A program made the position numbers and the translations under genes. Source: a virus (lineage: Duplodnaviria; Heunggongvirae; Uroviricota; Caudoviricetes). Taken from it: 48,774 nucleotides of DNA. This document shows, one piece after another, positions 4,470-48,635 of the stretch (positions are counted from its first letter, which is position 1; every line of letters begins with the position of its first letter). The DNA lies in the IMG/VR virus record IMGVR_UViG_2909267149_000001, one strand, 5' to 3'. Under the pieces are notes generated by a model, which saw only the letters and a list, made by a program, of their open reading frames with translations, was not told the origin of the DNA and did no database searches.

Positions 4470-5179
4470 TCTGAAATTTAAATCTTGCTTGGTAGGCTGG
4501 ATTTAAAAAGACACCTCTTGATTGGGGCGGCTTTCTTGCGTCTAAAGATAATCAAATCTTTTTGCGCCTGCAACCCCTTTTTTACTGGTGCCCATTTCAG
4601 ACTCACGCTCGCGTCGTTGTCTTTGCCACTTCGTTGGGTTCGGTGTTTTTGGGCGAAGTGGCGCGCGGGTATGCGTACAAGGGGAAAGTGTGCTGACGCA
4701 AGCCAGGAACAGCGATCTAAACTAAGTCGAGTCTGAGAAAGGCAGGAGTGCGACAACTCGCCTGTGCTCTATGAGCAGAAGAAGGTATATCAGACGACCA
4801 ATGGCATGATTGTGGGCCACAGGGCGCACACGGCGGCGAAGCATTGGAAACGATGTGGAGCTATCTGGTGGCATGAGTTCCGGTACTCGATCTCGAGCTT
4901 TTTTTGATGCTTTTGAGAAGGGGCCGGAACTCCGGTAAAGGGCACCCTGTATGGGGGGAGGGGGGGTTGTGTCTGAAGGGTGGTTATCGGTTATGGTGGA
5001 ATTATGATGCGTAGAAAAGCGAGTTTGCTGCAAGCTATTGGGTCCATTATTTCTTTGTTTCCGGCAGTTGATCATTTTCGTCATATGGCGACACGTTCGA
5101 GTATGGGCTTGGCGCGTGACGCTGACGCTATTCGAAAGGATTTTCAGAAAGTCTCTGGTGTTGATAAGAGAGAAAAGAG

Positions 5180-5199
5180 TAAGGGGCCGTAGCCCCTTG
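5180..5199 (-). terminator. Terminator hairpin downstream of antirepressor gene
   Basis: aaggggccgtagcccctt hairpin just 3' of the minus-strand stop at 5203. Confidence 0.4.
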
Positions 5200-5202
5200 T
5201 AG

Positions 5203-6345
5203 TTATGGTCTGCTTTTCTGTGCCAGCTTATCAGCACATGTTTTTATCAGATCCTGTAGTGTCCTGGCTGGCAGGTTTGCATCCAGTACGCTGAGTATGC
5301 TGTTGTGATCAGCCTGGTCGACTACTTTGCCTGTCGGTGGTAGTAGCTTGAGCTGAGGATTCAGGTTTTCGTCAAAGCTGATAAGTGCTCTGGCGTTTCT
5401 GAGCAGATCAAGAAGTAAGGCTGATATCACATTTTCCTGAGTCATTGCTGGCAGACTTAGCGCCGCTTTGGTTTTCCCTGTTGCCTTGTCAAACTCCTTG
5501 ATTAGTTCCTTCCTGTAGTTCGGTTCCGTTAATAGCCGATTATGCTCTGTTGCCGCGCGGATAATCGTTTTTTCCTGGTACAGTCGTTTAGCCAGATCGC
5601 GCTCGTACTGTGTTTTTAACACGCTGCTGATAGCGTTAAAGGCTTCAATGTAGGCCAGCTTGATATCCTTCACGCCTGGACCGTCGATACTTTCCATGAG
5701 CAAGGTAAATCCGTCTTTTGTCATGCGATAGATTGTTATTTCGCGGTCGCTTCCTTCCAACGGTCGTTGCTCTTTAAAGAAATGACGCGCCGCAGCTGTG
5801 CGAGGAATGCGTAACGCATCGATGGCCATAACGATGGAATTGTTTGTGGTGCTGAATGCCTGGGCAACATCGGCTGAGGTTGTGAGTGGCTCGTTGTTGC
5901 ACACTTTAATGTAAAACATTGGTTTGGCGTTGAGCGTATCGACAACCTCACGAGCATTGTTTGGTGAGACGGTTACGGTCGCGGCCGTTTGTGCGTTCTG
6001 GTTGAAATAGCAGTCTTCCAGTTTTTCGAACACATCCCAAGCCTGATCGGTTTCGAGCATTTTGGCGTGACGGGCTGCTCCGTGTTCGGTCCAGAGAATT
6101 AGGGAGCGGGCATTTTTACCAACTAACCCGATTGTTTCAGGTCTGTTCTTGAACTCGCGTAATTCGTTTTTTTCAATTTTAAAGTAATGCTTTCCGGCTA
6201 TGAATCGCGTCGTGTTGTTCAGAAAGTTATCAGAAATGTTTTTGATTTTTGTTCCGTATAACTGCGCCAGAAGTTCACTAGTGATAACGGGGATCTGGTT
6301 ATGCAGGATAGGCTGTAGGGTGTTAACGGTCGGAAGCGTTTTCAT
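5203..6345 (-). CDS. Phage antirepressor (Ant-like; KilA-N/ORF6N-like N-terminus and Rha-like regulatory domain)
   Basis: 380-aa protein with motifs recalled from antirepressor families; GGAGG RBS; translationally coupled to an upstream small ORF. Confidence 0.55.
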   Translation of the reverse strand: MKTLPTVNTLQPILHNQIPVITSELLAQLYGTKIKNISDNFLNNTTRFIAGKHYFKIEKNELREFKNRPETIGLVGKNARSLILWTEHGAARHAKMLETDQAWDVFEKLEDCYFNQNAQTAATVTVSPNNAREVVDTLNAKPMFYIKVCNNEPLTTSADVAQAFSTTNNSIVMAIDALRIPRTAAARHFFKEQRPLEGSDREITIYRMTKDGFTLLMESIDGPGVKDIKLAYIEAFNAISSVLKTQYERDLAKRLYQEKTIIRAATEHNRLLTEPNYRKELIKEFDKATGKTKAALSLPAMTQENVISALLLDLLRNARALISFDENLNPQLKLLPPTGKVVDQADHNSILSVLDANLPARTLQDLIKTCADKLAQKSRP

Positions 6346-6533
6346 TTTGTACCTCCCATAACTACTTTGGTTACGAGGGAGATTTTTGCGTCAGAAACAG
6401 CGTTATCGTTGCTGGCGATGCGCATAGCTTCGCGCTCGATGATTTCAGCCAGGCGGAGTTTATCGGCGTATGAGGCTTTCTTGAGAAGGATCTTTACGAG
6501 GTTGACGTAATAGTCATGGGGTAAGTTTGTCAT
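6342..6533 (-). CDS. Small protein translationally coupled to the antirepressor (icd-like position)
   Basis: 63-aa ORF whose TGA stop overlaps the antirepressor ATG (ATGA). Confidence 0.4.
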   Translation of the reverse strand: MTNLPHDYYVNLVKILLKKASYADKLRLAEIIEREAMRIASNDNAVSDAKISLVTKVVMGGTK

Positions 6534-7418
6534 GGTGATAGTTCCCTTAAAGGTTAAGGATACTCACCACCGTCTGGTTCCAATCATTGGGTGGTGAGAC
6601 GTACAGGGTTGGAACTACCGGTCACCATGGAATCCGGCGAGTCTTACGACTCCCCCGCACGCCCCACCATAATTTGGGTGTAGCAGTGCTTTACGCATAA
6701 AAAAACCGCTAACGCGGTATGCGCCATGATGATTATCGGGGTTCCAATCCCGGCCGTAGATTTTGCTACGGCTCGGAAAGTGTCCACCAATGGCGCATTC
6801 ATGTCAATACGGCGGGATTTTAACAGAGACAACCACATAGCGTGGGTTTATTGGTAGGCAGAAACAAAAAAACCGCCCTATTGAGGACGGTTCTTTCGTG
6901 CTGATCGGATTCGCGGTCCTTTCAGCATTACGTTGTTGTATAAACAACCACGCAAGCACAAGCAGCAAGTTAATTTTACCCAAAAGGTAATAATAGTCCA
7001 CTATTATGCTTCAAAAAATTGTGGTTCTTGTTGTGCCTGCAAACTCACAGATTGTGGGTAGGTTACTGATTTTGTGAAAATAAACGAGTTTTTTCGTTTA
7101 ATTTCTTTCCTATTACTAATCTTAAAATAATCGTAAAATACCTGTGGACCTTCCCGCCGATTCGCACCCGGGCACCGACTTTAGGGGAGGATTCTCCGTT
7201 GCCGTACATGCAAGCACAAGCAGCCGTGCTTGCTCTCGCGTTGTTTTCGTCGGTGGGGATGCCGTGAAACGGCCTGTAAGGGCCATACAATGAAAAAATA
7301 CTGTATGTGTATTTTTATCGTTGTTACTGGAGCTTTGTTTACGCCACATGGGGAGGGTTGGAAGATTACTGATAACGCTCTGAATGTGACGATAAACATT
7401 AGCAGCAAGTAGCGATTA

Positions 7419-7442
7419 GGCCCCTTCGGGGGCCTTTTTTAT
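7419..7442 (+). terminator. Rho-independent terminator on plus strand
   Basis: aggccccttcgggggcct hairpin followed by T6. Confidence 0.6.
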
Positions 7443-7450
7443 GGTTGAAT

Positions 7451-7633
7451 TTAAACTCTGGAGCGCATTAAGCCTTTCAGAACTGCTTCACGTACCCATT
7501 CTGGCCTGGTGGATAGCAGGGCAAATAAGCGACCAGCTTGCAGCCGTTTGAGGTCGGTTAGACGAGTTTTCAGTAACCGTGTATATTGTTGCTCGGACAT
7601 AACAAATTCCCCTTGTTGTGTCGCGACGGCCAA
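7451..7633 (-). CDS. Hypothetical small protein
   Basis: 60-aa ORF upstream of the antirepressor leader. Confidence 0.3.
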   Translation of the reverse strand: MAVATQQGEFVMSEQQYTRLLKTRLTDLKRLQAGRLFALLSTRPEWVREAVLKGLMRSRV

Positions 7634-9159: not shown

Positions 9160-9172
9160 GTTGTCAAAACCA
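9160..9172. promoter_or_regulatory. Operator palindrome CCACA-N3-TGTGG (distal, OL-like)
   Basis: Perfect 13-bp palindrome ccacaaaatgtgg identical in half-sites to the sites in the repressor/cro intergenic region. Confidence 0.5.
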
Positions 9173-9225
9173 CAAAATGTGGTTTTTTTGAGCGTAGAAA
9201 TGCACGGCTTTCGCCGTGCTGTGTA

Positions 9226-9882
9226 TCATAACCAGTTGACAACACTAACTACGCGGCCAAGAACTTTATAACGCTTAAATTCCTCGTTATTCAGATGCTT
9301 AGTGTTCATTTCAGCATCCCTTTCGGTTGACAGCATAACAGCATTGTCACCCGGTATGACTCTACAGTGCCTCAAAACAACCAGGCCATTTCTGTCTTCA
9401 AGGGCATAGATCCCCTCATGAATCTCTGTATCGTCTGTATTAATCAGGACTTGGGAGCCAGGGGATATTGTTGGTGACATTAACTCATCGTTGCTCTGGA
9501 GAACTGACAGAGACGATGGGTTGATGTTCTTGCTTCGTAGAATCTCCTGTTCTATCGCCAGCACTGGCTTTTCTCCGGCGTGCGATGCTATGTCATTTTT
9601 TATAGCTACAAGCCCAGGAATAACAGGAGCGTTAGTATTCTGGGGTGGGAACGGGTTATCTGTTAAGCACGCGATATAAGGCGCTGATGCTTTCAGGGCG
9701 TGCGCGATTTTCTTGATGGCAGGTATAGATGGTTGTCTTAATCCGGCCTCATAGTTCTGCAAGGTGCTTAAGCCTATTCCAGTGACTTGCTGGAGATCTC
9801 CGGCAGTCATGCCGGATTGTTTCCGTAGAGTCTGAATGCGCAGACCTATTTCTTTCTTGATGTTCTCGTCGTTGCTTTTCAT
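9226..9882 (-). CDS. CI-like repressor (N-terminal XRE HTH, C-terminal S24 LexA-like peptidase domain)
   Basis: 218 aa; N-terminal HTH; C-terminal domain with candidate Ser (LMSPTISPGS) and Lys (YKVLGR) dyad; divergent from a Cro-like gene across an operator region. Confidence 0.8.
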   Translation of the reverse strand: MKSNDENIKKEIGLRIQTLRKQSGMTAGDLQQVTGIGLSTLQNYEAGLRQPSIPAIKKIAHALKASAPYIACLTDNPFPPQNTNAPVIPGLVAIKNDIASHAGEKPVLAIEQEILRSKNINPSSLSVLQSNDELMSPTISPGSQVLINTDDTEIHEGIYALEDRNGLVVLRHCRVIPGDNAVMLSTERDAEMNTKHLNNEEFKRYKVLGRVVSVVNWL

Positions 9883-9920
9883 GTCTCATCAATCGTGAAT
9901 GGTGGGTTATTTATACATTA

Positions 9921-10036
9921 CCACATTTAGTGGTTTTCACATGGTAAGACGAGAGGTGGACCACAAATAGAAGGTTATTTTTTGTTTCGCCCATTGAAAA
10001 ACTCACAATATGTGGTTTTAATACCACATATTGTGG
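9921..10036. promoter_or_regulatory. Operator region (OR-like) with three CCACA-N3-TGTGG sites
   Basis: ccacatttagtgg (9921-9933), tcacaatatgtgg (10003-10015), ccacatattgtgg (10024-10036) between divergent repressor and cro-like genes. Confidence 0.6.
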
Positions 10037-10055
10037 TTTAACTGGAGTTCGTTAA

Positions 10056-18509: not shown

Positions 18510-18585
18510 GGCCCCTTAGCTCAGTGGTTAGAGCAGGCGACTCATAATCGCACGGTCATCGGTTCAAATCCGGTAGGGGCCACCA
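18510..18585 (+). tRNA. tRNA with anticodon CAU (tRNA-Ile2-like or tRNA-Met), 76 nt with encoded CCA
   Basis: Cloverleaf: acceptor GGCCCCT/AGGGGCC, D-arm AGCTCAGTGGTTAGAGC, anticodon loop CTCATAA, T-arm GGTTCAAATCC; close to E. coli ileX from memory. Confidence 0.85.
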
Positions 18586-48447: not shown

Positions 48448-48635
48448 CTGGAGTTAGGCCAGTAGTATGATGCTCGCAAAACGAGATCCAATTTAGATCC
48501 TTTTACTGGTGGATTATCGTTCGATCAGTGAGAGACTTCGTGCATGACCGAAAGTGTTGTGGTAGAGTTCTCTTAAAACCACGTAACGTGGTTATGATTG
48601 TGGGTGTCTGGTTGAAAAGTGACCAGATATGGAAA

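Follow-up and report, generated by a model that had tools for sequence, protein, structure and literature searches.

The immunity region immI of phage P1 is annotated in the order a1 (TTGACAG), b1 (GTTAGTGC), c4, a2, b2, icd and ant1, with ant1 overlapping icd by 4 nucleotides (nt), b2 lying over the icd Shine-Dalgarno sequence, and an operator and tandem promoters upstream. In P1, c4 RNA is excised from its precursor, with RNase P acting at the 5' end, and allele-specific recognition is the basis of heteroimmunity between P1 and P7. A similar locus, isrK-orf45-anrP (IsrK, STnc1160), is found in the integrated lambdoid prophage Gifsy-1, where the output studied was AntQ; IsrK activates anrP translation in trans, and Hfq binding and trans-activation of antirepressor translation are known only for this IsrK (PMC4825925). 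The timPR locus of Salmonella and E. coli encodes a toxin mRNA, timP (ryfA), and a small RNA (sRNA), TimR, whose homologues are recognized by complementarity to the 5' untranslated region (5'UTR) of timP, a position upstream on the opposite strand and a terminator that follows (PMC7667032, PMC11228461, PMC13000454). TimR binds SL2, far upstream of the ribosome-binding site (PMC7667032, PMC11228461), and timP translation requires an SL1-SL3 pseudoknot together with site 2 interacting with site 4 (PMC7667032, PMC11228461, PMC13000454). Here we describe positions 5203-7440 of IMG/VR virus record IMGVR_UViG_2909267149_000001, a ~49-kb circular phage-plasmid of Escherichia (E. coli); the whole analysed stretch of 48,774 nt is called the window. 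We conclude, with a probability of about 0.85, that this region consists of two adjacent, independent RNA-regulated modules: a P1-type immI locus, which includes the antirepressor-like gene ant, and a timPR-type toxin-antitoxin locus.

An earlier note on this DNA, made from the letters alone, had taken the ~900 bp upstream of ant and its small companion open reading frame (ORF) for a single leader of P1 immI-like layout. An Rfam scan at gathering thresholds placed three curated families in this "leader", C4, isrK and ryfA, all of which scored above gathering in 7 of the 7 related loci searched. The c4-like RNA, which the note had suspected without being able to identify it, is a member of the C4 family (84.3 bits against a gathering score of 45); its fold had a z-score of -4.6, and compensatory changes were found in the closing stem and in hairpin 1, the latter with three compensatory pairs. 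On the minus strand the window carried, in order, a promoter, a1/b1, a terminator, c4, a2/b2, an ORF of 63 amino acids (aa) and ant (Table 1), and the proposed layout with c4-type antirepressor control was matched element by element for a1b1, c4 and a2/b2. Of the c4 segments, a' (GUUCCAA) is complementary to a2 (UUGGAAC) and b' (CAUGGUGA) to b2 (UCACCAUG), which covers the start codon of the 63-aa ORF. P1 and P7 share with the window the promoter or promoters, a1 and b1, a terminator-like hairpin, c4, a2 a few nt further on, b2 at the start of the small ORF and an ant gene overlapping it through ATGA. They also share the c4 fold, with b' in the loop of hairpin 2 and a' single-stranded, and an operator-like site upstream of the promoter that can be compared with Oc4 of P1. 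The window differs from P1 in the recognition sequences (a, UUGGAAC rather than UUGACAG; b, UCACCAUG rather than GUUAGUGA), in the position of b2 (over the AUG, and not over the Shine-Dalgarno sequence), in the spacing from a2 to b2 (45 nt versus 29 nt) and in its primary repressor, which is cI/LexA-like where P1 has C1. The small ORF and Ant are likewise unrelated in sequence to Icd and Ant1, for which BLASTP gave no significant alignment to the window proteins.

IsrK and a1b1 are two names for one element: the isrK model recognizes the a1b1 region of P1 (35 bits), and the RF03163 c4-a1b1 model recognizes the window isrK (39 bits, under the gathering score of 46.7); for comparison, the c4 of P1 itself scored 68.8 bits with the C4 model. 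In the window, P1 and Gifsy-1 alike, RF01394 (isrK) and RF03163 (c4-a1b1) hit a single element, which they thus appear to model twice; Rfam clan CL00128 lists C4 and c4-a1b1, not isrK.

Table 1. Features of the two modules and associated sites, in window positions unless another locus is named.
Feature	Position	Strand	Remarks
ant, 380-aa antirepressor-like gene	5203-6345	minus	ORF6N and Phage_pRha domains; PHROG anti-repressor families
63-aa ORF, in place of P1 icd	6342-6533	minus	Stop overlaps ant start (ATGA)
b2 target UCACCAUG	6531-6538	minus	Covers AUG of 63-aa ORF; complementary to b', with which it covaries in 5 alleles
a2 target UUGGAAC	6577-6583	minus	Hairpin loop; starts 4 nt past end of c4 match (6587)
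c4 antisense RNA	6587-6674	minus	Rfam RF01695, full-length model
c4 a' GUUCCAA	6609-6615	minus	Single-stranded segment
c4 b' CCAUGGUGA	6622-6630	minus	Hairpin-2 loop
isrK (a1b1 element)	6699-6772	minus	Rfam RF01394, 72.5 bits, gathering 50
isrK intrinsic terminator	6699-6718	minus	
b1 UCAUCAUGG	6724-6732	minus	Within isrK
a1 UUGGAAC	6741-6747	minus	Loop of isrK hairpin 2
Predicted promoter of isrK-c4-orf-ant operon	6779-6807	minus	TTGACA, 17 nt, GACACT; start near 6772
Possible extended -10 promoter TGTTAAAAT	6817-6825	minus	
Operator-like palindrome CCCACGCUAUGUGGU	6832-6846	minus	Over possible extended -10 promoter
TimR-like antitoxin sRNA, ~105 nt	6966 to ~6862	minus	Ends inferred from promoter and terminator
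TimR terminator	6866-6892	minus	Strong
TimR seed (5' 18 nt) GCUGCUUGUGCUUGCGUG	6949-6966	minus	First repeat copy
Predicted TimR promoter	6973-7000	minus	TGGACT, 16 nt, TAAAAT; start at G6966
timP mRNA (Rfam ryfA), 297 nt	7144-7440	plus	RF00126, 142.3 bits, gathering 80; model positions 1-296 of 296
Pseudoknot site 1 CACCGAC	7173-7179	plus	
TimR-binding site	7207-7224	plus	Second repeat copy; SL2 5' arm and loop
Pseudoknot site 3 GUCGGUG	7249-7255	plus	
TimP-like 40-aa ORF MKKYCMCIFIVVTGALFTPHGEGWKITDNALNVTINISSK	7290-7412	plus	Shine-Dalgarno AAGGG at 7278-7282
timP mRNA intrinsic terminator	7418-7440	plus	
cI/LexA-like repressor gene	9226-9882		Helix-turn-helix (HTH) and S24 peptidase, by domain content
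ACCACA-N3-TGTGGT palindromes	6832-6846, 9169-9183, 9920-9934, 10002-10016, 10023-10037, 48578-48592		
HTH_3 (XRE-type) insert	L002 6985-7524; L003 1953-2525; L007 1956-2549		Equivalent to window ~6849-6858

Across 13 related loci of the phage-plasmid family we distinguished five immI alleles (Table 2). In four of the five, a1/a'/a2 and b1/b'/b2 changed in step at all three positions; allele A has the b1 of allele D (UCAUCAUGG), whose pairing with the b' of allele A includes one G.U. Covariation was counted on an alignment (A1) of eight distinct sequences. The a1-a' interaction comprised seven pairs, four of them changed on both sides, and b1-b' comprised nine pairs, three of them changed on both sides; 100% of alignment cells were paired in each case, against 33-47% when the partners were slid by one to three columns as a control. 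Pairs changed on both sides numbered four for a'-a2 and two for b'-b2. The few unpaired a'-a2 cells are an artefact of MAFFT, which shifts a2 by one column in L013 and L014; by eye, pairing in these two loci is perfect (GAUUGGCGUC against ACGCCAA). Duplex energies of the c4 core ignore intramolecular structure and discriminated only weakly across alleles, so explicit pairing and covariation counts were used instead. Unless pairing is under selection, it is difficult to account for changes that are coordinated between as many as three separate sites.

Table 2. The five immI alleles of the phage-plasmid family.
Allele	a (target / c4)	b targets	b in c4
A	UUGGAAC / GUUCCAA	UCAUCAUGG, UCACCAUG	CCAUGGUGA
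B	as in A	ACACAAUG, CACAAUG	CAUUGUGU
C	UUAGCCU / AGGCUAA	ACACGAUG, CACAAUG	CAUUGUGU
D	UUGGCGU / ACGCCAA	UCAUCAUG (both)	CAUGAUGA
E	UUGGCGU / ACGCCAA	GCACAAUG, CACAAUG	CAUUGUGC

The presence of an Ant-like gene and of a small ORF whose stop overlaps the ant ATG, both reported in the earlier note, held up on analysis of their products. The ant product matched Pfam ORF6N (1e-20) and Phage_pRha (3e-12) as well as PHROG anti-repressor families, and the 63-aa ORF product matched phrog_7886, a family of unknown function. The Shine-Dalgarno sequence of ant (GGAGG, 6352-6356, minus strand) lies inside the 63-aa ORF; because of this and the ATGA overlap, ant would depend on translation of the 63-aa ORF. 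Ant would in turn inactivate the cI/LexA-like repressor. Annotation of these genes varies among relatives: the RefSeq and PLSDB entries of several near-identical plasmids reduce the antirepressor to its C-terminal 239 aa ("Rha family transcriptional regulator"), with the full 380-aa ORF intact (L001, 5403-6545), and the record of pTD225C4_47 marks the N-terminal part as a pseudogene. In a locus with allele D (pMB9880_3; L013, 1413-1700), the small ORF before ant is annotated with 288 nt and not 192 nt, from a start upstream of the conserved ATGACAAAC that would fall inside the a2/b2 region.

We propose that transcription starts near 6772 and that many transcripts probably stop at the isrK terminator, yielding an IsrK/a1b1 RNA of ~74 nt, while read-through transcripts would carry c4, presumably excised as in P1. 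The b' loop and the single-stranded a' segment of c4 would then pair with b2, over the AUG of the 63-aa ORF, and with a2; judged by P1 and Gifsy-1, this would block initiation on the 63-aa ORF and hence on the ant gene predicted to be translationally coupled to it, and, as in P1, it would probably also permit Rho-dependent polarity. The same c4 segments could alternatively pair with a1 and b1 in IsrK. As IsrK has the target sequences of c4, it could act on c4 either in cis, by sequestering it, or in trans, by titration, and Ant would thereby be switched on. Such titration fits the trans-activation shown for Gifsy-1 IsrK.

Gifsy-1 is another of the closest known systems. There, as in the window, isrK is followed by C4 and then by an ORF6N-type antirepressor gene, whose N-terminal part shares ~90% DNA identity with the window, and the Gifsy-1 "a" allele (UUGGCGU) is that of alleles D and E. 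The window locus might thus act as Gifsy-1 does, with a long transcript kept silent by cis pairing of a1b1 with c4, a short IsrK as trans-activator and no independent role for c4 as a trans-repressor. The shared isrK and C4 pair and the trans-activation of anrP by IsrK (PMC4825925) favour such a scheme, as does the equally tight covariation with c4 of a1/b1 and of a2/b2. Gifsy-1, however, has no separate ORF after c4: orf45 runs through c4 and is coupled directly to anrP, whereas the equivalent frame in the window stops after 8 codons and a separate 63-aa ORF follows c4. In this respect the window is therefore P1-type, with b2 over the AUG and a2 just after c4. The a2/b2 sites also covary with c4, which argues that target pairing is under selection. 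We therefore regard a purely Gifsy-1-like mode of action as unlikely; the Gifsy-1-type and P1-type mechanisms can coexist.

We tentatively suggest a further reading, which we consider possible but less likely than not: that IsrK is a dedicated decoy for c4, and that the ant decision is set by competition among three RNAs, IsrK, c4 and the orf63-ant mRNA. If so, the covariation of a1/b1, a'/b' and a2/b2 in five natural alleles of a single phage-plasmid lineage would be the genetic footprint of a three-RNA circuit, and the "putative a1/b1 sites" of P1, activation by Gifsy-1 IsrK and seqA/CI/seqC of satellite phage P4 would share one mechanism. The circuit would also explain heteroimmunity at immI between otherwise near-identical phage-plasmids. 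P4 offers a parallel in its CI RNA, a processed RNA flanked on both sides by complementary targets (seqA and seqC) in the same transcript, and the IsrK locus has been likened to it before (PMC4825925); CI differs in causing transcription termination of replication genes and belongs to another RNA family with other targets. The predicted end of TimR lies only ~90 nt upstream of the isrK start and in the same orientation, and a weaker addition to the decoy proposal is that TimR read-through transcription might feed immI.

The upstream half of the region belongs to the second module. The 15-mer GCAAGCACAAGCAGC is found exactly at 6952-6966 and 7210-7224, as the earlier note had seen, with the second copy in a hairpin (GCAAGCAC-loop-GUGCUUGC); even with up to two mismatches, ~0.11 matches would be expected in the window by chance. 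The repeat extends to 18 nt (6949-6966 and 7207-7224) with one C/T difference. A direct DNA repeat means complementarity between RNAs transcribed off opposite strands, and the 5' 18 nt of the minus-strand RNA formed an 18-bp duplex with 7207-7224 (one G.U, -35.5 kcal/mol); whole-length RNAduplex comparison of sRNA and mRNA was uninformative, and seed-only duplexes were used instead. The predicted start of this RNA, G6966, is where the reverse complement of the first repeat copy begins, and the geometry of its predicted promoter is kept in divergent haplotypes. The RNA folds into three hairpins and a terminator (z = -5.9); it matches K-12 TimR in architecture, and its body sequence is conserved between the two. 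A permissive Rfam search for a TimR family returned none; its matches to RNAI (26.7 bits) and Phe_leader (23.1 bits) lay far under gathering and were rejected as chance. The window thus shows each of the published marks of a TimR homologue, namely complementarity to the timP 5'UTR, an upstream position on the opposite strand, a terminator and a site in SL2, here far upstream of the ribosome-binding site (Shine-Dalgarno 7278-7282, AUG 7290). Both repeat copies also vary together among the related loci (GCAGC/GCAGC, ACAGC/ACAGC, GCGGC/GCGGU), and every one-sided difference is G.U-compatible. The 15-mer repeat is the TimR-timP SL2 pairing site. The spacer between TimR and timP (6970-7143) is far more variable across haplotypes than the near-invariant sRNA body and timP ORF and contains indels; recombination or diversifying selection on expression could account for this.

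These results bear directly on the model in the earlier note, in which 6534-7442 formed one structured leader, the 15-mer was a c4- or sar-like antisense/target pair controlling ant, and a plus-strand RNA ran antisense to the leader. Its repeat and hairpins are real, the region does lie upstream of ant on the map, and the plus-strand intrinsic terminator that it placed at 7419-7442 is present, at 7418-7440. The conserved promoter, nearly invariant in the 13 loci and itself predicted from sequence, and the 5' end of isrK nevertheless put the start of the true antirepressor leader near 6772, so that it runs to 6534 and measures ~240 nt rather than ~900; the remainder comprises an sRNA gene, two divergent promoters and a 297-nt mRNA with a genuine 40-codon ORF. 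The plus-strand RNA is not antisense to the leader because 7144-7440 does not overlap it. The supposition that no genuine protein-coding gene occupies the stretch survives only in part, given the 40-aa TimP ORF. Nor do the repeat, hairpin and terminator act as parts of ant control: the two copies of the repeat fall within the TimR and timP SL2 homologues of the adjacent timPR locus, and their alleles do not covary with those of c4. In three relatives (L002, L003 and L007) a ~0.66-kb gene for a ~190-aa HTH_3 (XRE-type) protein separates the repeat from the operon. We give the single-leader model almost no credence.

The independence of the two modules is seen in several ways. Alleles of immI are combined with those of timPR in all sorts of ways and thus assort independently. 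The HTH gene sits precisely between the terminator of TimR and the operator-like site of immI, a position without insert in the window, and may be a second immI regulator. The isrK-c4 cassette occurs on many other plasmids without a match to the timPR query, and timP homologues occur on unrelated conjugative plasmids, among them Yersinia pGDT4 (where timP is annotated) and Serratia plasmids.

The plus-strand ryfA transcript is the putative mRNA of a 40-aa TimP-like membrane toxin. Its ORF has the N-terminal MK..C.CI..V.GAL.T motif of K-12 TimP and a C-terminal SSK; Pfam and PHROGs gave no match to it. Pairing between sites 1 and 3, whose positions we inferred from mutation coordinates in PMC13000454, keeps 7 bp relative to CGCUGGC/GCCAGUG of K-12 through two compensatory double changes. 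By analogy with Salmonella, the 5' 18 nt of TimR would pair with SL2, prevent the SL1-SL3 pseudoknot and keep the Shine-Dalgarno sequence sequestered. Another view of this transcript is that it is a non-coding regulatory sRNA, as in uropathogenic and avian pathogenic E. coli, with the minus-strand RNA as its sponge or regulator and no toxin-antitoxin function. Two papers (PMC8205139, PMC13188913) do present RyfA as an sRNA with effects on stress responses and virulence, and the TimP score under the NCBIfam cutoff counts on the same side. Yet the ORF retains its start, stop, Shine-Dalgarno sequence and conserved N- and C-terminal residues, and SL2, SL4 and the pseudoknot with its compensatory changes are preserved, which is sensible only if translation matters. 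An exclusively regulatory function is consequently quite improbable; the two roles of ryfA are not mutually exclusive, and we keep to the toxin mRNA.

In its arrangement the plasmid locus follows the chromosomal one, for which K-12 RefSeq lists timR (minus strand), ryfA and timP (a 41-aa "putative toxic protein") in the same divergent order. Chromosomal timPR, whose TimR was formerly known as RyfB/STnc2070, likewise has an sRNA 5' end complementary to timP SL2, an sRNA with three hairpins and a terminator, the SL1-SL4 build with the SL1-SL3 pseudoknot and an ORF of ~40 aa with a conserved N-terminus. The two differ in location (phage-plasmid versus chromosome, between sseA and sseB), in the intergenic spacer (178 nt in the window versus 400 nt in K-12) and in the strength of pairing. 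The cognate duplex reaches -35.5 kcal/mol versus about -15 with the K-12 target, so that plasmid and K-12 timPR are not predicted to cross-pair. A "distant" blastn search of E. coli genomes with the timPR module found phage-plasmid copies only and no chromosomal ryfA, DNA similarity being too low for blastn, and homology to K-12 is for that reason shown by the covariance model and by direct comparison. With the hok/sok-type type I systems of plasmids, plasmid timPR has in common a small membrane toxin, here a predicted one, and an antisense sRNA on a low-copy plasmid that also carries partition genes and a type II pair; this likeness supports a stabilizing role, and plasmid timPR would probably serve in stabilization of the plasmid-prophage or in defence. 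In contrast to hok/sok, the sRNA here is trans-encoded without overlap with the toxin gene, mok-like coupling is absent, and control would be by pseudoknot and structural switch rather than mRNA processing.

Positions 5000-7600 of the window shared 99.9% identity with plasmids NZ_AP025749.1 and CP099184.1 and 93-95% with three complete Yersinia phage genomes, those of vB_YpM_39, 41 and 44. Related records contain repA, a ParA partition operon, a RelE/HigB-type toxin-antitoxin pair and the cI/LexA-like repressor. By blastn, the timPR part of the region was present in 71 of 5426 complete E. coli genomes (~1.3%), and 72 of its 73 places in these genomes were plasmid-borne; the E. coli reference strain ATCC 25922 is among the carriers of the phage-plasmid family (L003). 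Among the 14 related plasmid and phage records examined, none had c4, isrK, TimR or timP RNAs annotated, and we found no relevant literature on timPR in phage-plasmids or on the Yersinia phages. The phage-plasmid also encodes a RelE/HigB-type toxin with an HTH antitoxin at ~2294-2946 (annotated in L001 and L002), so that a type II pair stands alongside the type I timPR, and a tRNA-Met gene (CAT anticodon) at 18510-18585. The motif ACCACA-N3-TGTGGT, with up to two mismatches, had 13 matches in the window against 1.27 expected, clustered at the repressor gene, and the copy at 6832-6846 was kept in six of six loci checked, including those with the inserted gene. From their sequence and placement, these palindromes are probably operators of the prophage repressor. 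The one upstream of the immI promoter recalls the C1-controlled P51a upstream of the constitutive P51b in P1, a resemblance that is only a prediction.

Several points weigh against the two-module reading. The transcript ends, the processing of c4 and the efficiency of IsrK termination are all predictions. What the window has in common with P1 is the RNA cassette and the layout only, the 63-aa ORF product and Ant being non-homologous to Icd and Ant1. The related loci represent only 3-5 independent haplotypes, so the covariation counts reflect few independent events, and gene conversion is in principle another way in which both copies of a direct repeat could change together. TimP scored 23 bits with NCBIfam toxic_TimP (NF040796), for which the cutoff is 45; its toxicity is predicted, and the low score is probably why it carries no annotation. 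Pairing of sites 2 and 4 in the window amounts to only 5 bp, and the pairing of sites 1 and 2 in the timP switch was not convincingly found there.

Both modules are members of well-described families and imply no new kind of mechanism, and novelty is therefore limited to three points: the presence of both modules in a phage-plasmid lineage where their annotation is missing, a natural series of covarying immI specificity alleles, and a plasmid-borne timPR whose seed mismatches the K-12 target. The ~900 bp that had stood as an unannotated gap now contain four defined RNA genes together with a gene for one small putative toxin. The five covarying immI alleles are ready-made compensatory mutants for recognition among c4, IsrK and their targets and for heteroimmunity, and the plasmid timPR is a natural system for asking whether timPR can play a part in plasmid-prophage maintenance or defence.

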